Assembly: GCF_003334385.1 (NCBI RefSeq)
Contig: NZ_QOWN01000002.1
DNA length: 64,000 nucleotides
Source: Escherichia coli
GTDB taxonomy: Bacteria; Pseudomonadota; Gammaproteobacteria; Enterobacterales; Enterobacteriaceae
Direction: 5' to 3' (one strand)
Both the position numbers and the translations under genes were made by a program. The notes beneath the pieces are model-generated. The model did no database searches, was not told the origin of the DNA, and was given only the letters and a program-made list of their open reading frames with translations. Below, piece after piece: positions 2,557 to 39,912 of this stretch. Each line of letters opens with the position of its first letter. The first letter of the stretch is position 1.

Positions 2557-3921
2557 TCAGCCGCAGACCACTTTAATGGCCAGTCCTCCGCGTGATGTTT
2601 CGCGGTATTTATCGTTCATATCTTTGCCGGTTTCATACATCGTCTCGATCACTTTATCGAGTGAAACACGCGGTGCCGAGGTGCGGCGCATCGCCATCCG
2701 CGCGGCGTTTACTGCTTTCACGGCATTAATGGCATTACGTTCAATGCACGGGATTTGTACCTGTCCGGCAACCGGATCGCAGGTCAGCCCAAGGTTATGC
2801 TCCATCGCGATTTCCGCCGCATTGCATACCTGCGCCGGACTGCCGCCCAGTAGTTCAGTTAACCCTGCCGCCGCCATTGAACAGGCCACGCCAATCTCCC
2901 CCTGACAGCCGACTTCCGCGCCAGAGATGGAGGCGTTCATTTTATACAGCGCGCCAATAGCCCCCGCGGCCAGAAAATAGCGGGCAATTGACCGCTCGTT
3001 TACCGGACGACGGAACTTATCGTAATAAGCCAGTACTGCCGGAATAATGCCGCACGCACCGTTAGTCGGTGCCGTTACCACGCGCCCGCCAGCTGCGTTT
3101 TCTTCACTAACCGCCAGCGCGTACATGTTGATCCAGTCGATGACATTCATCGGATCGTTAGAGATGTTATCGCTGGAAACCAGCTGACGACGCAGCGCTA
3201 CGGCACGGCGCGGCACATTGAGCGGACCAGGCAGCACGCCTTCAGTGTTCATCCCACGTTCAATACCGTCATGCATCACTTGCCAGATACGGGCAAAACC
3301 GGCGTCAATTTCCGCTTTGCTGCGCAGCGCTAGCTCGTTGTGCATCATCAGACCAGATATAGACAGGCCGTTGTAATCACACATTTTCAGCAGTTCACCT
3401 GCTGAGTGGAAATCGTAAGGTACGGACGTTTCGACATCGTGCGACAGGCCGAAGTGTTCTTCTTCGACAATAAACCCGCCGCCGACAGAGTAATAGGTTT
3501 TACTTAATAGCTCTTCCTGTCCCTTCCAGGCAGTGATCCGCATTCCGTTCTCATGGCGAGGCAACATTTCGGGATGGAAGATAATGTTCTTTGCTACAGG
3601 AAAATCAACAATATGCGCACCAGATGCCACTGGCAGCCGCCCGCTGCGCGTTACTAACTCTATAAATGCAGGGATCTCATCAATGACAACATCCTGCGGA
3701 CTGTTTCCTGCCAGTCCCATGATGATGGCGACATCCGTGGCATGGCCTTTGCCCGTCAGTGACAACGACCCGTACAGATCGACCACAATATGGCTCGTCG
3801 CGGTTAATAAGCCGCTACTTTCCAGCCGATCAATAAAACTTTTTCCGGCATTCATTGGCCCCACGGTATGCGAACTGGAGGGACCAATCCCAATTTTGAA
3901 AATATCGAATGCACTAATCAT
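2557..3921 (-). CDS. tdcG: L-serine dehydratase TdcG, 454 aa
   Basis: Track ORF 2557..3927; start set at the second in-frame ATG to give [23 protein letters not shown], the Fe-S L-serine dehydratase N-terminus. Confidence 0.9.
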
Positions 3922-3992
3922 ATCCACACCCTCGGATTGCCGTTCAGTGAAGTGGAGCGGAACGACCTTACGACCGTCCCGCTCACGAGGCT

Positions 3993-4382
3993 TTACGCAC
4001 TACGTACTGCGATGGCTTCAATTTCCAGCTTCACATCTTTCGGCAAACGCGCGACCTGCACACAGCTCCGGGTCGGATAGGTCGCCTGATGCTCATCGAA
4101 GAACTGCTTATAGACTTCGTTGATGGTGGCAAAATCATTCAGATCGGTGATAAACACGGTCATCTTGATGATATCGCCCACGCTCAGCCCGGCAGCAACC
4201 ACGATCGCTTTGACGTTTTCGAGGCTTAAACGCGCCTGATCTTGCACATCAGCCGGGATCTCACCGGTCTGTGGGCAAACCGGTATTTGCCCGGAGGTGA
4301 AGACCATGCTGCCTAAATCAACGCCCTGAACATAAGGGCCGATTGCGCCTGGGGCACGTTGCGTTTCGATAATCTTTTTCAT
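3993..4382 (-). CDS. tdcF: RidA-family enamine/imine deaminase TdcF, 129 aa
   Basis: Track ORF 3993..4445 is N-terminally over-extended; start set at internal ATG giving MKKIIETQRAPGAIGPY (YjgF/RidA fold). Confidence 0.9.
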   Translation of the reverse strand: MKKIIETQRAPGAIGPYVQGVDLGSMVFTSGQIPVCPQTGEIPADVQDQARLSLENVKAIVVAAGLSVGDIIKMTVFITDLNDFATINEVYKQFFDEHQATYPTRSCVQVARLPKDVKLEIEAIAVRSA

Positions 4383-11400: not shown

Positions 11401-11416
11401 TGTGCGACCACTCACA
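11401..11416. promoter_or_regulatory. CRP-binding site upstream of tdcA (tdc promoter)
   Basis: tgtgcgaccactcaca matches the CRP consensus TGTGA-N6-TCACA at 9 of 10 half-site positions; lies about 65 bp upstream of the tdcA start in the tdcA/tdcR divergent region. Confidence 0.6.
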
Positions 11417-11651
11417 AATTAACTTTCAATACTTTCCAGAGTATCGTTGTTACAATTAAATACCTTTAAATATCAACAAGTTAAAGTATAAAAATCAGCA
11501 TAAACCCTGATTTTTGTCAAAAAAAATGACGGGGATAACCATATTTTATGGCGATAACATCATTCGTTATGTGGTTAATACAAAAAAGGGGCTGAGACCA
11601 TATTTCAAGCAATTACCGGATAATTACCAAGCAAAATTTGAGTTAAATTTA

Positions 11652-11870
11652 ATGAGCAAGTTCTCAAATTTTATTATAAATAAACCATTTTCAGTGATAA
11701 ATAATGCGGCATGTCACATTTTTTCACGCTATTTGTTGGAGAACAAACATTTATTTTATCAATATTTTAAAATTTCGAATACATTTATTGATCATCTCGA
11801 ACAATTGATTAACGTCAACTTTTTCTCTTCTGACAGGACGTCATTTTGTGAATGCAATCGTTTTCCATAA
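11652..11870 (+). CDS. tdcR: Small putative tdc operon activator TdcR, 72 aa
   Basis: Track ORF 11514..11870 (118 aa); the annotated TdcR as I recall it corresponds to the C-terminal 72 codons from MSKFSNFIINKPF. Start choice is uncertain. Confidence 0.6.
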   Translation: MSKFSNFIINKPFSVINNAACHIFSRYLLENKHLFYQYFKISNTFIDHLEQLINVNFFSSDRTSFCECNRFP

Positions 11871-12095: not shown

Positions 12096-12665
12096 TTGTT
12101 TGTCATGATGACAAGGCAGGCATCAATGAAAGGCTTCCCAATTGCGCATATTTTTCACCCTTCAATCCCGCCAATGCACGCAGTGGTTAACAATCACAAT
12201 AGAAATATTGATTATTGGACGGTAAAAAGAAAGTTTGCAGAAATTGTCTCCACCAATGACGTTAATAAAATTTACAGTATAAGTAATGAACTGCGGAGAG
12301 TATTATCTGCAATAACTGCATTGAATTTCTATCATGGCGATGTTCCTTCTGTCATGATCCGAATCCAACCGGAAAATATGAGTCCATTCATTATAGATAT
12401 TTCTACAGGAGAACATGATGATTATATCATACAAACATTAGATGTAGGCACTTTTGCACCTTTTGGTGAACAATGTACTTGCTCAGCCGTCAATAAAAAA
12501 GAGCTGGAATGTATTAAGGAGACGATTTCTAAGTATTGTGCAAAATTCACCCGAAAAGAAGCCATCTTAACCCCCCTTGTGCACTTTAATAAAACCAGCA
12601 TTACTTCAGATTGTTGGCAAATTCTCTTTTTTTCACCCGATCATTTTAATAATGATTTTTATTGA
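12096..12665 (+). CDS. yhaB: Uncharacterized protein YhaB, 189-aa ORF
   Basis: Track ORF in an AT-rich segment; no recognisable domain. Position between tdcR and yhaC matches K-12 yhaB. Confidence 0.7.
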   Translation: MFVMMTRQASMKGFPIAHIFHPSIPPMHAVVNNHNRNIDYWTVKRKFAEIVSTNDVNKIYSISNELRRVLSAITALNFYHGDVPSVMIRIQPENMSPFIIDISTGEHDDYIIQTLDVGTFAPFGEQCTCSAVNKKELECIKETISKYCAKFTRKEAILTPLVHFNKTSITSDCWQILFFSPDHFNNDFY

Positions 12666-12686
12666 TTATTTATAAAGGATAAAATA

Positions 12687-13874
12687 ATGTTCCCTGTTTC
12701 ATCAATTGGTAATGATATTAGTAGTGATTTAGTCCGTCGAAAAATGAATGACCTTCCTGAAAGCCCAACAGGAAATAACCTCGAAGCACTAGCACCAGGT
12801 ATAGAAAAACTAAAACAGACCTCTATTGAAATGGTCACTTTACTTAACACGTTACAACCTGGTGGAAAATGCATTATCACTGGTGATTTTCAAAAAGAAT
12901 TAGCGTACTTACAAAATGTAATTCTTTATAATGCCTCGTCTCTTCGTCTGGATTTTTTAGGTTATAACGCCCAAATTATTCAACGATCGGACAATACTTG
13001 TGAACTTACCATTAATGAACCGTTAAAAAACCAGGAAATATCCACAGGTAATATCAATATTAATTGCCCATTAAAAGATATTTACAATGAAATCAGGAGG
13101 TTAAACGTAATTTTTAGTTGTGGGACTGGAGATATCGTTGATCTATCCTCTCTGGACTTACGTAATGTCGATTTAGATTATTATGATTTCACAGATAAAC
13201 ATATGGCTAATACTATTTTAAATCCTTTTAAATTGAATTCAACAAATTTTACTAATGCCAACATGTTTCAGGTTAATTTTGTTAGTTCAACACAAAACGC
13301 CACAATCTCCTGGGATTATTTACTAAAAATAACGCCTGTTTTAATAAGCATTAGCGATATGTATTCTGAAGAAAAAATCAAGTTTGTCGAAAGTTGTTTA
13401 AATGAGCCTGGAGACATTACCGAAGAACAATTAAAAATTATGAGATTTGCAATTATAAAATCTATACCAAGGGCAACTCTTACAGATAAATTAGAAAATG
13501 AATTAACAAAAGAAATATATAAAAGCTCATCGAAAATCATCAATTGCTTGAACAGAATTAAATTACCAGAGATGAAAGAATTCTCATCAGAAAAAATATA
13601 TGATTACATCGATATAATCATTGAAGATTATGAAAATATCAAAGAAAATGCTTATCTGGTCGTCCCCCAAATTAATTATACTATGGATTTAAACATAGAA
13701 GACTCTAGCTCAGAAGAGTTACTTTCAGATAATACCCTCGAGAAAGACGAAAATTCTCCGGACAATGGCTTTGAGGTCGGGGAATATAACACATATGAAG
13801 CATATAACTCAGAGAAGCAATATTTTACCAGAGAGGACTATACGTATGATTACGACCTTTTAAATGCAATATAG
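12687..13874 (+). CDS. yhaC: Uncharacterized protein YhaC, 395 aa, with a pentapeptide-repeat block and an acidic Tyr/Glu/Asp-rich C-terminal tail
   Basis: Track ORF, AT-rich. Residues ~158-198 (RNVDL DYYDF TDKHM ANTIL NPFKL NSTNF TNANM FQVNF) have a hydrophobic residue at every fifth position. Confidence 0.8.
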   Translation: MFPVSSIGNDISSDLVRRKMNDLPESPTGNNLEALAPGIEKLKQTSIEMVTLLNTLQPGGKCIITGDFQKELAYLQNVILYNASSLRLDFLGYNAQIIQRSDNTCELTINEPLKNQEISTGNININCPLKDIYNEIRRLNVIFSCGTGDIVDLSSLDLRNVDLDYYDFTDKHMANTILNPFKLNSTNFTNANMFQVNFVSSTQNATISWDYLLKITPVLISISDMYSEEKIKFVESCLNEPGDITEEQLKIMRFAIIKSIPRATLTDKLENELTKEIYKSSSKIINCLNRIKLPEMKEFSSEKIYDYIDIIIEDYENIKENAYLVVPQINYTMDLNIEDSSSEELLSDNTLEKDENSPDNGFEVGEYNTYEAYNSEKQYFTREDYTYDYDLLNAI

Positions 13875-32846: not shown

Positions 32847-33602
32847 ATGGAACGAGGCACTGCGTCTGGTGGTGCCTCTTTACTTAAGGAATTTCATCCT
32901 GTGCAAACCCTTCAGCAAGTTGAAAACTATACGGCGTTAAGTGAACGTGCCAGCGAATATTTATTGGCCGTGATCCGTAGCAAACCGAATGCCGTGATTT
33001 GCCTGGCGACCGGAGCCACGCCATTACTGACGTATCATTATCTGGTAGAAAAAATCCACCAGCAGCAGGTTGATGTCAGCCAGCTCACCTTCGTGAAGCT
33101 CGACGAATGGGTGGATCTGCCATTAACGATGCCAGGCACCTGCGAAACTTTCCTGCAACAGCATATCGTGCAGCCGCTGGGGCTACGTGAAGACCAGCTC
33201 ATCAGCTTTCGCTCCGAAGAGATAAATGAGACAGAGTGCGAACGGGTAACGAACCTGATTGCGCGCAAAGGCGGTCTGGATTTATGCGTTCTCGGATTGG
33301 GGAAAAACGGTCATCTTGGGCTGAACGAACCGGGAGAAAGCCTGCAACCGGCCTGCCATATCAGTCAACTTGATGCCAGAACACAGCAACATGAGATGTT
33401 AAAAACCGCGGGTCGCCCCGTGACTCGTGGGATCACCTTAGGCCTGAAGGATATTCTCAATGCCCGCGAAGTTTTGTTACTGGTGACTGGCGAAGGAAAG
33501 CAGGATGCGACAGATCGTTTTCTCACGGCTAAAGTCTCTACCGCTATCCCGGCTTCATTTTTATGGCTGCACAGTAACTTTATTTGTTTAATTAACACCT
33601 AA
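32847..33602 (+). CDS. agaI: Galactosamine-6-phosphate isomerase/deaminase AgaI (NagB-like), 251 aa
   Basis: Track ORF; GlcN6P deaminase family, last gene of the aga cluster. Confidence 0.9.
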   Translation: MERGTASGGASLLKEFHPVQTLQQVENYTALSERASEYLLAVIRSKPNAVICLATGATPLLTYHYLVEKIHQQQVDVSQLTFVKLDEWVDLPLTMPGTCETFLQQHIVQPLGLREDQLISFRSEEINETECERVTNLIARKGGLDLCVLGLGKNGHLGLNEPGESLQPACHISQLDARTQQHEMLKTAGRPVTRGITLGLKDILNAREVLLLVTGEGKQDATDRFLTAKVSTAIPASFLWLHSNFICLINT

Positions 33603-34002
33603 CCAGATGAAAAATTTGCTCAAAATGTTTAAATTAACTTATGTAACAGTCACGCATTATATTAAATAACATTTGACTGGGTTGAACATAACGCCGATAG
33701 CAAAAGGAGTTATGTTCAACAATTTAATTTTAGATATACATATAACTTGTTCTATTAATAAATCACCTCGTATTCTGACTCGCCCCCTGGCGCAGCAAAG
33801 TCAGGCATTTATACTCTTTTGAATACATAGAAAATTGATATCAATATAATGAAAATATCAAATATTTGCATATAAATATAATCTTAAAGTTCAGTCTATT
33901 TAATGTTCAATGAAATATTTCTGCCTGTATAATCTTTAAAGATGTTGAACATATATTCACATTAAATATGATTATGTACTTGTTACAAGGATAAGGTTAT
34001 AT

Positions 34003-34587
34003 ATGAATAAAGTTACAAAAACAGCTATTGCGGGCTTACTTGCGCTTTTCGCAGGTAATGCCGCTGCAACCGATGGTGAAATAGTTTTTGATGGCGAGAT
34101 TTTAAAATCCGCTTGTGAAATCAATGACTCTGATAAGAAAATTGAAGTTGCTCTTGGTCACTATAATGCCGAACAGTTTCGTAATATTGGCGAGCGTAGC
34201 CCAAAAATTCCATTCACTATTCCTTTAGTTAACTGCCCAATGACTGGGTGGGAGCACGATAACGGCAACGTTGAAGCGTCTTTCCGTCTATGGCTGGAAA
34301 CGCGAGATAATGGCACCGTCCCTAACTTCCCTAATCTGGCAAAAGTAGGCTCTTTTGCTGGCATAGCGGCAACAGGTGTGGGTATCCGTATTGACGATGC
34401 GGAAAGCGGAAACATTATGCCACTGAATGCTATGGGCAATGATAACACGGTTTATCAGATCCCGGCGGAATCCAATGGTATTGTCAATGTTGACCTCATC
34501 GCTTACTACGTATCAACCGTAGTTCCATCAGAAATCACCCCAGGGGAAGCAGACGCTATCGTTAACGTAACGCTGGATTACCGTTAA
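34003..34587 (+). CDS. yraH: Fimbrial major subunit-like protein YraH, 194 aa
   Basis: Track ORF; signal peptide MNKVTKTAIAGLLALFAGNAAA and fimbrial subunit C-terminus; first gene of the chaperone-usher operon. Confidence 0.88.
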   Translation: MNKVTKTAIAGLLALFAGNAAATDGEIVFDGEILKSACEINDSDKKIEVALGHYNAEQFRNIGERSPKIPFTIPLVNCPMTGWEHDNGNVEASFRLWLETRDNGTVPNFPNLAKVGSFAGIAATGVGIRIDDAESGNIMPLNAMGNDNTVYQIPAESNGIVNVDLIAYYVSTVVPSEITPGEADAIVNVTLDYR

Positions 34588-34593
34588 TACGTT

Positions 34594-34628
34594 AGGGCGT
34601 TATCTGACCTGTCAGATAACGCCCTTTT
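34594..34628 (+). terminator. Hairpin terminator/attenuator after yraH
   Basis: gggcgttatctgac-ctg-tcagataacgccc followed by tttt, immediately after the yraH stop. Coordinates approximate. Confidence 0.6.
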
Positions 34629-34666
34629 CCTTCCTCTTTCTCGTTGTATCAGGTTGAAAAATAACT

Positions 34667-35362
34667 ATGTCAAAACGAACATTCGCGGTGATATTAACCT
34701 TGTTGTGTAGCTTCTGTATTGGCCAGGCGCTTGCAGGAGGAATCGTTTTACAGCGAACGCGAGTGATCTATGATGCCAGCCGCAAAGAGGCTGCGTTACC
34801 TGTCGCAAACAAAGGCGCAGAAACGCCTTATTTACTGCAATCATGGGTAGATAATATAGATGGTAAAAGCCGTGCCCCATTTATTATAACCCCACCGCTA
34901 TTTCGTCTTGAGGCTGGCGATGACTCATCACTGCGAATTATTAAAACAGCTGATAACCTGCCTGAAAATAAAGAGTCGCTGTTCTACATTAATGTTCGTG
35001 CCATTCCAGCAAAGAAAAAATCAGATGATGTTAATGCTAACGAGTTGACGCTGGTATTTAAAACACGGATCAAAATGTTTTATCGCCCCGCACACCTGAA
35101 GGGACGGGTAAACGATGCGTGGAAATCACTGGAATTTAAACGTAGTGACCATTCACTCAATATATATAACCCAACTGAATATTACGTCGTATTTGCCGGA
35201 CTGGCAGTCGATAAAACCGATCTCACAAGCAAAATTGAATATATCGCGCCCGGAGAACATAAACAGTTACCACTTCCTGCATCTGGCGGAAAGAACGTGA
35301 AATGGGCTGCGATCAATGATTATGGCGGCAGTTCCGGGACAGAAACTCGTCCACTGCAATAA
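34667..35362 (+). CDS. yraI: Periplasmic fimbrial chaperone YraI (PapD-like), 231 aa
   Basis: Track ORF; signal peptide and PapD-family chaperone sequence. Confidence 0.88.
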
Positions 35363-35390
35363 AAAATATAAAAACACAGGTCATCAGGGA

Positions 35391-37907
35391 ATGCCACAAC
35401 GACACCACCAGGGACATAAACGCACACCGAAACAGTTGGCGCTCATCATCAAACGTTGTTTGCCGATGGTGCTCACTGGCAGCGGCATGCTTTGCACTAC
35501 CGCTAACGCCGAAGAGTATTATTTCGACCCCATTATGCTGGAAACCACAAAAAGTGGTATGCAAACAACCGATCTGTCGCGTTTTTCAAAAAAATATGCA
35601 CAACTACCAGGAACTTATCAGGTTGATATCTGGCTGAATAAAAAGAAGGTTTCACAGAAAAAAATTACATTTACCGCCAATGCAGAGCAACTTCTGCAGC
35701 CACAGTTTACGGTAGAACAACTACGTGAGCTGGGGATTAAGGTGGATGAAATCCCGGCGCTGGCTGAAAAAGATGACGATAGCGTGATCAACTCGCTTGA
35801 ACAAATCATTCCCGGTACAGCTGCTGAATTTGATTTCAATCATCAGCAACTTAATTTGAGCATTCCCCAAATTGCACTGTACCGTGATGCAAGAGGTTAC
35901 GTCTCCCCTTCTCGTTGGGACGATGGTATACCAACGCTGTTTACCAACTACTCGTTTACAGGTTCTGATAACCGTTACCGCCAGGGCAATCGTAGCCAAC
36001 GACAGTACCTGAATATGCAAAATGGTGCTAATTTTGGCCCCTGGCGATTACGCAACTATTCCACATGGACACGCAACGATCAGACATCAAGCTGGAATAC
36101 CATCAGTAGTTATTTACAACGTGATATCAAGGCGTTGAAGTCTCAGTTGCTTCTGGGAGAAAGCGCCACCAGCGGCAGTATTTTTTCCAGCTACACCTTT
36201 ACTGGCGTGCAACTCGCTTCCGACGATAATATGTTGCCAAACAGCCAGCGCGGATTTGCCCCAACGGTACGCGGTATCGCAAACAGTAGTGCAATCGTGA
36301 CTATCAGGCAAAATGGTTATGTGATCTATCAAAGCAACGTGTCAGCGGGTGCCTTTGAAATTAACGATCTCTACCCCTCTTCCAACAGCGGCGATTTAGA
36401 AGTCACGATTGAAGAAAGTGACGGTACACAACGTCGCTTTATCCAGCCTTATTCTTCATTACCCATGATGCAGCGACCTGGGCATCTAAAGTATAGCGCG
36501 ACCGCTGGACGCTATCGCGCTGATGCAAACAGTGATAGCAAGGAACCCGAATTTGCTGAAGCCACGGCAATATATGGTTTGAATAATACTTTTACGCTGT
36601 ATGGCGGCCTGCTCGGTTCTGAAGATTATTATGCGCTGGGGATCGGTATCGGCGGCACACTTGGCGCACTGGGCGCGTTGTCGATGGATATCAACAGAGC
36701 TGACACCCAATTCGATAACCAGCACTCTTTTCATGGCTATCAATGGCGTACGCAGTACATCAAAGATATCCCGGAAACCAACACCAATATCGCTGTCAGC
36801 TACTATCGCTATACCAACGATGGCTATTTTAGTTTTAATGAAGCCAATACCCGCAATTGGGACTATAACAGTCGCCAAAAAAGTGAAATTCAATTCAACA
36901 TCAGCCAGACAATATTTGATGGGGTAAGTCTGTATGCCTCCGGTTCGCAGCAAGACTATTGGGGCAATAACGATAAAAACAGGAATATCTCTGTTGGGGT
37001 TTCCGGCCAGCAATGGGGAGTTGGTTACAGCCTGAATTATCAATACAGCCGCTACACTGATCAAAATAATGACCGCGCACTCTCTTTGAATCTCAGTATT
37101 CCGTTAGAACGCTGGTTACCGCGTAGCCGGGTTTCCTATCAGATGACCAGCCAGAAAGATCGCCCAACCCAACATGAAATGCGTCTTGATGGCTCACTGC
37201 TGGATGATGGTCGCCTGAGCTATAGCCTGGAACAAAGTCTGGATGACGATAACAACCATAACAGTAGCCTGAACGCCAGTTACCGTTCACCTTATGGCAC
37301 CTTCAGTGCCGGATACAGCTACGGTAATGACAGCAGCCAATACAATTACGGCGTTACCGGCGGCGTGGTTATCCATCCTCATGGCGTGACGCTCTCGCAA
37401 TATCTGGGCAACGCTTTTGCGCTTATCGATGCTAACGGAGCATCTGGCGTGAGGATACAAAACTATCCGGGGATTGCTACCGATCCTTTTGGCTATGCAG
37501 TGGTTCCTTATCTCACAACTTATCAGGAAAACCGTCTCTCGGTAGATACTACGCAGCTGCCCGATAACGTCGATCTTGAACAAACAACACAGTTTGTGGT
37601 GCCCAACAGAGGTGCAATGGTAGCGGCGCGTTTCAACGCCAATATCGGTTATCGCGTACTTGTTACAGTCAGCGATCGCAACGGTAAACCGTTGCCCTTT
37701 GGCGCTCTTGCCAGCAACGATGATACGGGGCAACAAAGTATCGTCGATGAGGGCGGCATACTATATCTCTCTGGGATATCGAGTAAATCACAAAGCTGGA
37801 CTGTACGCTGGGGAAATCAGGCAGATCAACAATGTCAGTTTGCTTTCAGTACACCGGATTCAGAACCTACAACCTCTGTATTACAAGGCACAGCGCAGTG
37901 CCATTAA
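35391..37907 (+). CDS. yraJ: Outer-membrane fimbrial usher YraJ, 838 aa
   Basis: Track ORF 35316..37907; start set at internal ATG (MPQRHHQGHKRTP...); usher family. Confidence 0.88.
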   Translation: MPQRHHQGHKRTPKQLALIIKRCLPMVLTGSGMLCTTANAEEYYFDPIMLETTKSGMQTTDLSRFSKKYAQLPGTYQVDIWLNKKKVSQKKITFTANAEQLLQPQFTVEQLRELGIKVDEIPALAEKDDDSVINSLEQIIPGTAAEFDFNHQQLNLSIPQIALYRDARGYVSPSRWDDGIPTLFTNYSFTGSDNRYRQGNRSQRQYLNMQNGANFGPWRLRNYSTWTRNDQTSSWNTISSYLQRDIKALKSQLLLGESATSGSIFSSYTFTGVQLASDDNMLPNSQRGFAPTVRGIANSSAIVTIRQNGYVIYQSNVSAGAFEINDLYPSSNSGDLEVTIEESDGTQRRFIQPYSSLPMMQRPGHLKYSATAGRYRADANSDSKEPEFAEATAIYGLNNTFTLYGGLLGSEDYYALGIGIGGTLGALGALSMDINRADTQFDNQHSFHGYQWRTQYIKDIPETNTNIAVSYYRYTNDGYFSFNEANTRNWDYNSRQKSEIQFNISQTIFDGVSLYASGSQQDYWGNNDKNRNISVGVSGQQWGVGYSLNYQYSRYTDQNNDRALSLNLSIPLERWLPRSRVSYQMTSQKDRPTQHEMRLDGSLLDDGRLSYSLEQSLDDDNNHNSSLNASYRSPYGTFSAGYSYGNDSSQYNYGVTGGVVIHPHGVTLSQYLGNAFALIDANGASGVRIQNYPGIATDPFGYAVVPYLTTYQENRLSVDTTQLPDNVDLEQTTQFVVPNRGAMVAARFNANIGYRVLVTVSDRNGKPLPFGALASNDDTGQQSIVDEGGILYLSGISSKSQSWTVRWGNQADQQCQFAFSTPDSEPTTSVLQGTAQCH

Positions 37908-37917
37908 GGATAAAAAA

Positions 37918-39009
37918 ATGAAAAGAGCGCCTCTTATAACAGGTCTTTTGTTGATATCCACATCCTGCGCTTATGCCTCCTCAGGAGGGTGTGGAGCCGA
38001 CAGCACTAGCGGTGCGACAAATTACAGCAGTGTGGTTGATGATGTTACGGTGAACCAGACAGATAACGTGACAGGACGGGAGTTTACCTCTGCAACGCTA
38101 AGTAGCACTAACTGGCAATACGCCTGTTCCTGCTCTGCGGGTAAGGCAGTTAAACTTGTCTATATGGTCAGCCCCGTACTTACCACCACTGGACATCAGA
38201 CAGGATATTACAAACTCAATGACAGCCTGGATATTAAAACCACATTACAGGCAAACGACATTCCAGGACTCACAACCGACCAGGTTGTCTCTGTTAACAC
38301 CCGATTCACACAGATAAAAAACAACACGGTATATTCTGCTGCAACCCAAACGGGTGTTTGCCAGGGTGATACGTCTCGTTATGGACCCGTTAATATTGGT
38401 GCGAACACCACCTTTACCCTGTATGTCACCAAGCCATTTCTCGGCTCGATGACCATTCCGAAAACGGATATTGCCGTCATTAAAGGCGCGTGGGTCGATG
38501 GAATGGGAAGCCCGTCTACAGGTGACTTCCATGATTTAGTCAAGTTATCGATTCAGGGAAATCTCACCGCCCCACAGTCGTGCAAAATTAATCAGGGCGA
38601 TGTTATTAAGGTTAATTTTGGATTCATCAATGGTCAGAAGTTTACCACCCGCAATGCCATGCCAGACGGTTTTACTCCAGTAGACTTTGATATCACTTAT
38701 GACTGTGGTGATACTTCAAAGATTAAAAACTCGTTGCAAATGCGCATCGACGGTACAACTGGGGTAGTAGACCAGTACAACCTGGTCGCCAGGCGAAGAA
38801 GTTCAGACAATGTGCCCGATGTCGGTATTCGTATTGAAAATCTCGGCGGCGGAGTTGCAAATATTCCTTTTCAGAACGGTATCCTTCCCGTTGATCCTTC
38901 CGGGCATGGCACCGTCAATATGCGCGCCTGGCCAGTTAATCTGGTCGGTGGTGAGCTGGAAACAGGAAAATTTCAGGGCACAGCCACCATTACCGTCATC
39001 GTGCGGTAA
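37918..39009 (+). CDS. yraK: Fimbrial adhesin-like protein YraK, 363 aa
   Basis: Track ORF 37660..39009 over-extended; start set at ATG giving MKRAPLITGLLLISTSCAYA signal peptide. Confidence 0.85.
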   Translation: MKRAPLITGLLLISTSCAYASSGGCGADSTSGATNYSSVVDDVTVNQTDNVTGREFTSATLSSTNWQYACSCSAGKAVKLVYMVSPVLTTTGHQTGYYKLNDSLDIKTTLQANDIPGLTTDQVVSVNTRFTQIKNNTVYSAATQTGVCQGDTSRYGPVNIGANTTFTLYVTKPFLGSMTIPKTDIAVIKGAWVDGMGSPSTGDFHDLVKLSIQGNLTAPQSCKINQGDVIKVNFGFINGQKFTTRNAMPDGFTPVDFDITYDCGDTSKIKNSLQMRIDGTTGVVDQYNLVARRRSSDNVPDVGIRIENLGGGVANIPFQNGILPVDPSGHGTVNMRAWPVNLVGGELETGKFQGTATITVIVR

Positions 39010-39017
39010 AAGAAGAC

Positions 39018-39041
39018 GTTGCGTTTTGATTAACGCAACGC
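39018..39041. terminator. Bidirectional hairpin terminator between convergent yraK and rsmI
   Basis: cgttgcgtt-ttgatt-aacgcaacg with T-runs on both sides. Coordinates approximate. Confidence 0.55.
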
Positions 39042-39051
39042 TTCGGCACTG

Positions 39052-39912
39052 TTACCCCTGCTGCTCCAGCGCATACTTATACAGCGCATTTTTCTTCACG
39101 CCGTGAATTTCTGCGGCCAGCGCCGCCGCTTTTTTCAGCGGCAGTTCTGCCTGTAGCAGCGCCAGCGTGCGCAGGGCATCGGCGGGTAAGTCTTCTTCCT
39201 GTGCTTTATGACCTTCGACAATCAGCACCATTTCGCCTTTGCGACGGTTTTCATCTTCCTTTACCCACGCCAGCAGCTCGCCAACGGGCGCGCCGTGAAT
39301 GGTTTCCCAGGTTTTGGTCAGCTCACGCGCCAGAACCACGTAGCGGGATTCGCCTAATACCGCAACGATATCTTCCAGGCTATCTAACAGACGGTGGGTA
39401 GATTCATAAAAAATCAGCGTGCGCGGCTCCGCTTCAATGGCTTTTAGCGCATCACGGCGGCCTTTTGATTTGGCAGGTAAAAAGCCTTCGTAACAGAAAC
39501 GGTCAGAGGGTAAACCCGCTGCGCTTAACGCAGTGATAGCAGCACACGGCCCGGGTAGCGGCACCACGCGGATCCCCGCTTCACGGCAGGTACGCACCAG
39601 ATGGTAGCCAGGATCGTTAATTAGCGGCGTTCCGGCATCGGAAACCAGCGCAATGTTTTGCCCCTCTTGCAGCTTCGCCAGCAGCGTTTCAGCTTTTTGT
39701 TGTTCGTTATGGTCGTGCAGCGCAAACAACCGGGCATTAATCCCAAAATGTTGCAGCAATAAACCGGTGTGACGAGTATCCTCGGCGGCAATCAGATCAA
39801 CGGCCTGTAATACCTCTAACGCACGCTGGGTGATATCCGCCAGATTGCCGATTGGCGTCGGTACAATGTAAAGCTGGCCCTGAGAATTATCCGCCGATTG
39901 GTGTTGTTTCAT
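39052..39912 (-). CDS. rsmI: 16S rRNA (cytidine1402-2'-O)-methyltransferase RsmI, 286 aa
   Basis: Track ORF; tetrapyrrole-methylase fold ([15 protein letters not shown]). Confidence 0.92.

Follow-up and report, generated by a model that had tools for sequence, protein, structure and literature searches.

The yraHIJK fimbrial operon of a K-12-like Escherichia coli: an AT-rich promoter spacer and a conserved stem-loop behind the major-subunit gene

How might a fimbrial operon that is silent in laboratory culture be expressed, and in what proportions would its products be made when a stable hairpin directly follows its first gene? The question is raised by positions 33603-39041 of a 64-kb stretch of E. 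coli DNA (the whole 64,000 nucleotides are called the window below), where the genes yraH, yraI, yraJ and yraK lie between agaI and rsmI. The locus itself is ordinary and already known: it is the intact yraHIJK operon of E. coli K-12. Earlier publications or annotations cover the operon, its cryptic state, its AT-rich region bound by H-NS and the LpfD-like character of YraK. Its value as a discovery is small: yraHIJK is annotated in every K-12 record, its forced expression and deletion have been published, and the H-NS-bound region upstream of it has been catalogued. The account favoured here, to which as a whole we give a probability of about 0.85, is that an intact, Lpf-like yraHIJK operon is transcribed from a promoter within an AT-rich spacer silenced by H-NS, that the hairpin behind yraH would yield an excess of yraH-only RNA, and that a second hairpin, between yraK and rsmI, would serve rsmI.

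The operon and its four proteins

The four genes of the operon, with the domains on which their assignments rest, are the following.

34003-34587, plus strand: yraH, 194 amino acids, major fimbrial subunit (Pfam Fimbrial at residues 27-193, E 8.6e-28)
34667-35362, plus strand: yraI, 231 amino acids, periplasmic chaperone (PapD_N at 25-144, E 5e-41; PapD_C at 168-222, E 1e-11)
35391-37907, plus strand: yraJ, 838 amino acids, outer-membrane usher (PapC_N at 44-190; Usher at 206-748, E 7e-216; PapC_C at 757-822)
37918-39009, plus strand: yraK, 363 amino acids, predicted two-domain tip adhesin (receptor-binding domain at about 21-200, pilin domain at 211-362)

These coordinates agree with both the Prokaryotic Genome Annotation Pipeline (PGAP) and the MG1655 annotation. 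The true start of yraJ is M26 of an 863-residue open reading frame (ORF), within which there are no internal stops, and that of yraK is M87 of a 449-residue ORF. An earlier note on this DNA, made from the sequence alone, had described a complete chaperone-usher set and named frameshifts in yraJ or yraK as what would overturn that description. None was found, and all four ORFs run uninterrupted at the reference lengths of 194, 231, 838 and 363 amino acids. Every classical chaperone-usher feature that was tested for is present, namely a PapD-type chaperone, a full-length usher, a secreted pilin with a Fimbrial domain and a two-domain adhesin. Pfam, NCBIfam, the PDB, a structure model and the MG1655 annotation agree on the identities and roles of the four proteins, and the description of the set as complete thus stands. 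The YraH translation opens with a signal-like sequence and ends in ...TLDYR. The last three genes are closely packed, with 28 nt between chaperone and usher and 10 nt between usher and adhesin; the corresponding spacers range from -10 to 70 nt in seven orthologous loci.

For the adhesin, the earlier note had proposed a structure prediction. In YraK the Pfam Fimbrial domain is confined to residues 211-362, and the N-terminal half has no Pfam family match. A phmmer comparison with the PDB nevertheless aligns residues 45-360 with LpfD (5AFO, E 1e-11). An AlphaFold2 model built from 48 homologues (predicted local distance difference test score 83, predicted template modelling score 0.65) was searched with Foldseek, which places the same LpfD structure nearest to it (E 5e-20), followed by CsuE, FimH, PapG and CupB6, likewise tip adhesins of two domains. 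On this modelling and homology, YraK is predicted to be a two-domain LpfD-like tip adhesin, in keeping with the MG1655 record, which already calls it "putative fimbrial adhesin YraK". Its N-terminal domain (about 21-200) is a reasonable target for glycan or extracellular matrix binding screens, because the adhesin is highly divergent between genera.

The stretch is K-12-like without being identical to the reference: it differs from MG1655 (NC_000913.3) by one mismatch in 7501 bases, G versus T at position 35735, a synonymous GGG/GGT change at Gly115 of YraJ. A 5.8-kb query from it is 100% identical to several complete genomes. The operon is kept in 3271 of 5426 complete E. coli genomes (at least 80% query coverage, 95-100% identity) and absent from about 40%; it is a presence/absence polymorphism, that is, an accessory locus of the species. 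K-12 has 12 chaperone-usher operons, among which yra is counted (PMC8174762). In E. coli PM4 an IS4-like ISVsa5 transposase gene lies inside the yra locus, and the chaperone is annotated as two pieces.

For comparison, the window was set beside 11 four-gene yra-like operons, with adhesins that share 38-82% identity with YraK. Their sources are an Escherichia-like contig, E. whittamii, Salmonella enterica (two), Klebsiella (two), Citrobacter portucalensis, C. amalonaticus, C. sedlakii, Kluyvera and Ewingella, and are cited below by our own locus numbers where these are needed. In E. coli, E. whittamii, Salmonella, Klebsiella, C. amalonaticus and C. sedlakii (the window and L004, L005, L006, L008, L021 and L022) the operon has a convergent rsmI-lpoA pair as its neighbour. 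In four of these syntenic loci (L004, L005, L006 and L008) RsmI is 93-97% identical, whereas the Yra proteins are only 43-68% identical. Judged from these comparisons, the locus appears to be a conserved chromosomal site occupied by a fast-diverging or repeatedly replaced fimbrial cassette.

The stem-loop behind yraH

The element on which the proposed stoichiometry depends lies between the major-subunit and chaperone genes.

34594-34629, plus strand: stem-loop at 34594-34625 followed by TTTT, candidate partial intrinsic terminator and/or 3' stabiliser

The hairpin starts 6 nt past the yraH stop codon and consists of a perfect 14-bp stem, with 7 G-C pairs, closed by a 4-nt loop. Its folding energy is -23.5 kcal/mol against -7.7 +/- 2.2 kcal/mol for shuffled sequence (z -7.1), and none of 200 shuffles was as stable. 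The stem is followed by TTTT and then CCTTCC (UUUUCCUU; UUUUCCUUCC), a short tail with 5-6 U in 8 nt that passes a standard terminator scan. The earlier note had reported a strong hairpin with a T-run at this place; the hairpin is real, and the T-run shrinks to these four residues. The element is single-copy in E. coli genomes, by which a repetitive extragenic palindromic (REP)-like repeat element was ruled out.

The 12-bp core stem does not vary across six E. coli lineages, and changes occur only in the loop (CCTG or CCTT) and at the stem base, where the K-12-type G at 34595 lengthens the stem from 12 to 14 bp. The wider comparison is the stronger part of the evidence: all 12 yra-like operons, drawn from six genera, have a stable hairpin behind the major-subunit gene, with stem sequences that differ; in the 11 orthologous operons the stems have 11-17 bp and start 2-20 nt after the stop codon. 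The divergent locus L009 shows a one-sided change to a G-U pair together with a loop insertion. Structure is thus conserved without sequence, and therefore an RNA-level function is indicated, not a DNA operator. The comparison argues for a role in partial termination and/or in protection of the yraH 3' end, and the hairpin would be a further example of an element type already known, well supported by comparison and with a mechanism that we infer from analogy.

On that analogy, with papA, and on the conserved position, the stem-loop probably makes yraH-only RNA more abundant than full-length yraHIJK RNA. Termination of a fraction of the transcripts could bring this about, as could a block to 3'-to-5' exonucleases, or both together, and rod subunits would then far outnumber chaperone, usher and adhesin. 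Several points weigh against this account. The U-tract is poor in five of the 12 loci (L005, L007, L008, L021 and L022) and short in K-12, where UUUU gives way to a C-rich sequence, and among the orthologues it extends from UUUUUU down to almost no U; therefore classical intrinsic termination is not the universally conserved activity. A genomic SELEX (systematic evolution of ligands by exponential enrichment) study lists a transcription unit "yraHI", with no boundary at the hairpin (PMC3946193). In standard data sets the operon shows no expression; fim appears in the supplements of Dar and Sorek 2018, and yra does not. Finally, the start of transcription is placed by conservation only.

The poor U-tracts bear most directly on a reading in which the hairpin is mainly a barrier to 3'-to-5' exonucleases after endonucleolytic processing. 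Polymerase would then read through efficiently, and differential decay of the mRNA would account for the surplus of the subunit. The hairpin is present in all 12 loci, five of which have only 1-4 U in the first 8 nt, and work cited in PMC5927463 and PMC4423207 has documented such decay in the fimbrial operons pap and CFA/I. On the other side, seven of the 12 loci, the window among them, have 5-6 U in the 8 nt after the stem, a tract that we class as good in L003, L004, L006, L023 and L024 and as partial in L009 and the window itself, and the window element passes the terminator scan; the two mechanisms are, moreover, compatible. A mainly protective hairpin is a possibility to be taken seriously, though less likely than not. 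A hairpin that is conserved in this fimbrial family even without a U-tract points to stabilisation of the RNA 3' end as well as to termination.

The opposite extreme would make the hairpin an efficient terminator, leaving yraH essentially monocistronic and yraIJK either expressed from a separate internal promoter or not expressed. The very stable stem (-23 kcal/mol) followed by UUUU speaks for it, as does a promoter-like TTTACA-16-TATGAT (10 of 12 matches) at 34747-34774, inside yraI. That site lies downstream of the yraI start and so cannot drive yraI, and promoter-like sites were not enriched in the promoter scan, with 8 found against 10.6 expected from shuffles. In the work of Korea and colleagues from 2010, functional Yra fimbriae are reported to have been produced from one constitutive promoter inserted ahead of the operon. 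In Shiga toxin-producing E. coli (STEC) of the haemolytic uraemic syndrome (HUS) group, expression of yraH, yraI and yraJ increases jointly, by about 2 log2 units (PMC6033998), a pattern that fits read-through past the yraH hairpin. An efficient terminator at this position is thus quite unlikely.

The same expression records bear on whether there is a function to regulate at all, for the operon might be a decaying remnant without function in present-day E. coli. Its silence in the laboratory and its absence from some 40% of complete genomes would fit decay, as would the pseudogenes of the Shigella flexneri yra operon (PMC6854044) and the insertion sequence (IS) elements found in some strains. 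Against this stand the four intact ORFs of the window, the 3271 genomes that retain the operon, the intact orthologous operons of five other genera, and expression both in urinary isolates in vivo (PMC4128348) and in STEC (PMC6033998), which together make a functionless remnant very improbable. Least probable of all is that the 32-bp palindrome is a DNA operator for a dimeric regulator: the inverted repeat is perfect over 14 bp and GalR sites have been predicted in silico within yraH and yraI (PMC5110547), but the orthologous loci keep the hairpin and not its sequence, as expected of a structural element. GalR itself was set aside, the predicted yraH and yraI sites being computational only and not at the hairpin.

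The AT-rich spacer and the junction with rsmI

If the stem-loop sets proportions, the spacer upstream of yraH would decide whether the operon is transcribed. Its features are these.

33603-34002, plus strand: agaI-yraH spacer, 27% GC, promoter region and H-NS-bound "promoter island"
33836-33864, plus strand: promoter TTGATA-17-TCAAAT predicted in the SELEX study (PMC3946193)
33870-33890, plus strand: conserved 21-bp motif, consensus ATATAAATA-N-AATCC(G/T)AAAAT, from the comparison of 12 loci
33928-33933, plus strand: conserved -10-like hexamer TATAAT, likely core promoter with an implied 5' untranslated region (UTR) of about 60 nt

The GC content of the spacer compares with 51% for the window, and the minimum-GC 400-bp stretch of the whole 64 kb, 33622-34021, practically coincides with it; only 0.1% of 400-bp windows across the 64 kb are as low. 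The leaders of the 11 orthologous operons have 23-41% GC against 47-56% for their loci. Further AT-rich 400-bp stretches of the window lie at 13166-13565, 11412-11811 and 12533-12932 (GC 0.27-0.33), and may be H-NS-type regions.

Of the 78 promoter islands described in MG1655, a class linked to foreign genes, the spacer is number 3285165_325 (Panyukov and Ozoline 2013, PMC3661553). It has the character of the class, being strongly AT-rich, upstream of an accessory operon and itself a listed member; so are the spacers that precede sfmA, elfA, yadN and ybgD (PMC3661553). H-NS binding at this island is recorded in the Kahramanoglou and Oshima chromatin immunoprecipitation (ChIP) data sets (marked "K" in Table 1 of PMC3661553), and genomic SELEX identified the spacer as a binding site of the RpoD holoenzyme overlapping an H-NS site (PMC3946193). 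Both PMC4128348 and PMC3559732 count yra as one of the "functional but cryptic" fimbriae, and PMC8174762, PMC7098969 and PMC4128348 cite Korea et al. 2010 for fimbria assembly upon expression of K-12 cryptic operons. The very AT-rich region of about 400 bp described in the earlier note is thus borne out as the lowest in GC of the window, and its proposal of a cryptic, H-NS-silenced operon agrees with the published ChIP, SELEX and citation record. H-NS occupancy of the spacer would keep the operon nearly silent in laboratory culture. Conditions of expression are on record: besides the urinary isolates and STEC mentioned above, yraH is induced by BolA overexpression (PMC4337573).

The position of the promoter within the spacer can be approached by comparison. 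The TTGATA-17-TCAAAT sequence predicted in the SELEX study varies from one E. coli lineage to another, some having TTCATA...TAAAAT instead. By contrast, the 21-bp motif occurs in 11 of 12 yra-like loci (five genera), 127-163 nt upstream of the major-subunit ATG, with 16-20 of 20 consensus positions matched. Shuffled sequences reached the score in 0 of 300-500 cases in 10 loci and in 3 of 500 in L006, and the motif occurs once in the 64-kb window. In 10 loci TATAAT or a near variant follows 54-58 nt downstream of the motif start. Transcription would begin within the spacer, most likely from the conserved TATAAT at 33928-33933, some 70 nt ahead of the ATG; this hexamer is probably the actual core promoter and the 21-bp motif an upstream regulatory or UP-like element.

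The motif (about -69 to -49 from the start so placed) might further be the site of a specific regulator, for example an H-NS counter-silencer or a class I activator, and such a regulator may be common to the yra-like operons of Escherichia, Citrobacter, Salmonella, Klebsiella and Kluyvera. We consider this rather unlikely; if it were true, the factor binding the motif would reveal the natural signal that switches on a cryptic fimbria. As a conserved promoter-proximal element, the motif could help to find the inducing regulator. Compared by eye with the consensus sequences of IHF, Lrp, CpxR, PhoP, RcsB and H-NS, the motif gave no convincing match apart from an ATAAAT core that also occurs in the H-NS high-affinity site, and it was assigned to none of them. 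When the proximal leader was compared by BLAST with all E. coli genomes, no paralogous copy turned up upstream of other operons; some 84 genomes match the proximal leader only in part.

The leader also holds a repeated element. The 8-mer TTGAACAT occurs four times in its 400 bp (33682-33689, 33712-33719, 33903-33910 and 33945-33952), a number that none of 20,000 shuffles reached; the 64-kb window as a whole has six copies. Two copies lie on each strand, forming two inverted pairs, the first of which gives a hairpin of -18.9 kcal/mol (z -5.9) about 80 nt after agaI. The repeats are kept in the O157 and O114 lineages and absent from other genera.

Strain TUM9757 (L020) has lost the leader. An IS1A element (L020 positions 3288-4040) stands 39 bp upstream of the yraH ATG, and the AT-rich leader is missing together with the garP-to-agaI region. 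Replacement of the leader by IS1A in this strain could derepress the operon.

The far end of the operon carries another hairpin, listed here with the neighbouring genes.

39016-39041, minus strand: yraK/rsmI hairpin, terminator-like for rsmI only
32847-33602: agaI, the neighbour before the yra spacer
39052-39912, minus strand: rsmI, convergent with yraK
from 39947: lpoA, beyond rsmI

This hairpin too is real (z -3.7 on the plus strand, -4.7 on the minus strand). The earlier note had called it a bidirectional terminator between yraK and rsmI, a claim that finds no support on the yraK strand. A U-rich tail, CUUCUUUUAC, follows only on the minus strand, the sense strand of rsmI; on the plus strand the tail is CUUCGGCAC, with no U-run, and the hairpin therefore falls outside the canonical definition of a bidirectional terminator. 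Most plausibly it terminates or stabilises the rsmI mRNA, and for yraK it would at best be a 3' structure without a U-tract. At the corresponding adhesin/rsmI junction, E. whittamii and Klebsiella have GC-rich hairpins without U-tracts, and in two Citrobacter loci just 4-5 nt separate the adhesin gene from rsmI.

The hairpin belongs to the yra-containing haplotype. In the empty haplotype (L002), agaI is followed by 49 bp and then rsmI, with breakpoints at about 33572 and 39054, within the 3' ends of both genes. The two haplotypes accordingly encode alternative C-termini (AgaI of 255 amino acids in the empty and 251 in the yra haplotype, RsmI of 287 and 286), and a different hairpin stands at the agaI/rsmI junction of strains without yra. 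The agaI of the O157:H7 strain H6437 is a pseudogene, interrupted by an internal stop.

Known systems with a comparable arrangement

A stable stem-loop directly downstream of the major-subunit gene and before the assembly genes is found, as in yra, after papA, elfA, yadN and sfmA. The 3' end of papA mRNA is a protective, RNase-resistant terminator structure (PMC5927463). In MG1655 there is, between elfA and elfD (L018), a 9-bp GC-rich stem (z -5.1), between yadN and yadV (L019) a 13-bp stem followed by UUUUAAUU, and between sfmA and sfmC (L017) a weaker hairpin (z -2.1). The pap operon differs from yra in having an additional RNase E cleavage between papB and papA; no papB-like gene stands upstream of yraH. 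The earlier note had likened the yraH hairpin to the attenuators of both pap and fim. The likeness to pap is sound, but that to fim fails: the fimA-fimI spacer (L015), although in the corresponding position after the major subunit, has no sequence in common with the yraH hairpin and folds like shuffled sequence (z 0.02). Thus pap, elf and yad are better analogues than fim.

The fimA-fimI spacer is the source of FimR2 (b4838), a 35-nt small RNA that is processed by RNase E and binds CsrA (PMC9723502). That the yraH 3' hairpin likewise marks a stable regulatory RNA derived from the 3' UTR is, in our view, even less likely than a dedicated regulator at the 21-bp motif. The yra hairpin is unrelated to FimR2 in sequence and does not qualify as FimR2-like, and an Rfam scan of 33000-39600 at E <= 1 gave only a chance viral match and no known RNA family.

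As a fimbrial system, yra comes closest to Lpf. The lpfABCD(E) operon of Salmonella and E. coli (gamma-1) has the same gene order as yra: major subunit, chaperone, usher, two-domain adhesin. Among NCBIfam families Lpf is the best for the chaperone (LpfB, 195 bits) and the adhesin (LpfD, 76 bits), with a near-tie for the usher, where the LpfC model gives 740 bits and the generic usher model 741; the YraJ match spans positions 24-841 of the 842 of the LpfC model. These scores are far below the equivalog cut-offs of 360 (LpfB), 1271 (LpfC) and 412 (LpfD), and therefore yra is Lpf-like and not Lpf. YraK and LpfD align over both domains, yet with only about 20% identity, and yra differs further from lpf in having no fifth gene (lpfE) and in occupying another chromosomal site. 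By gene order and family scores, yra is best classed as a chaperone-usher system of the Lpf-like branch of the gamma fimbriae. This placement stands beside that of Stubenrauch et al. 2017, who assigned YraJ and UshC to a "Gamma*" subgroup and noted LpfD-like adhesins in it (PMC5717340).

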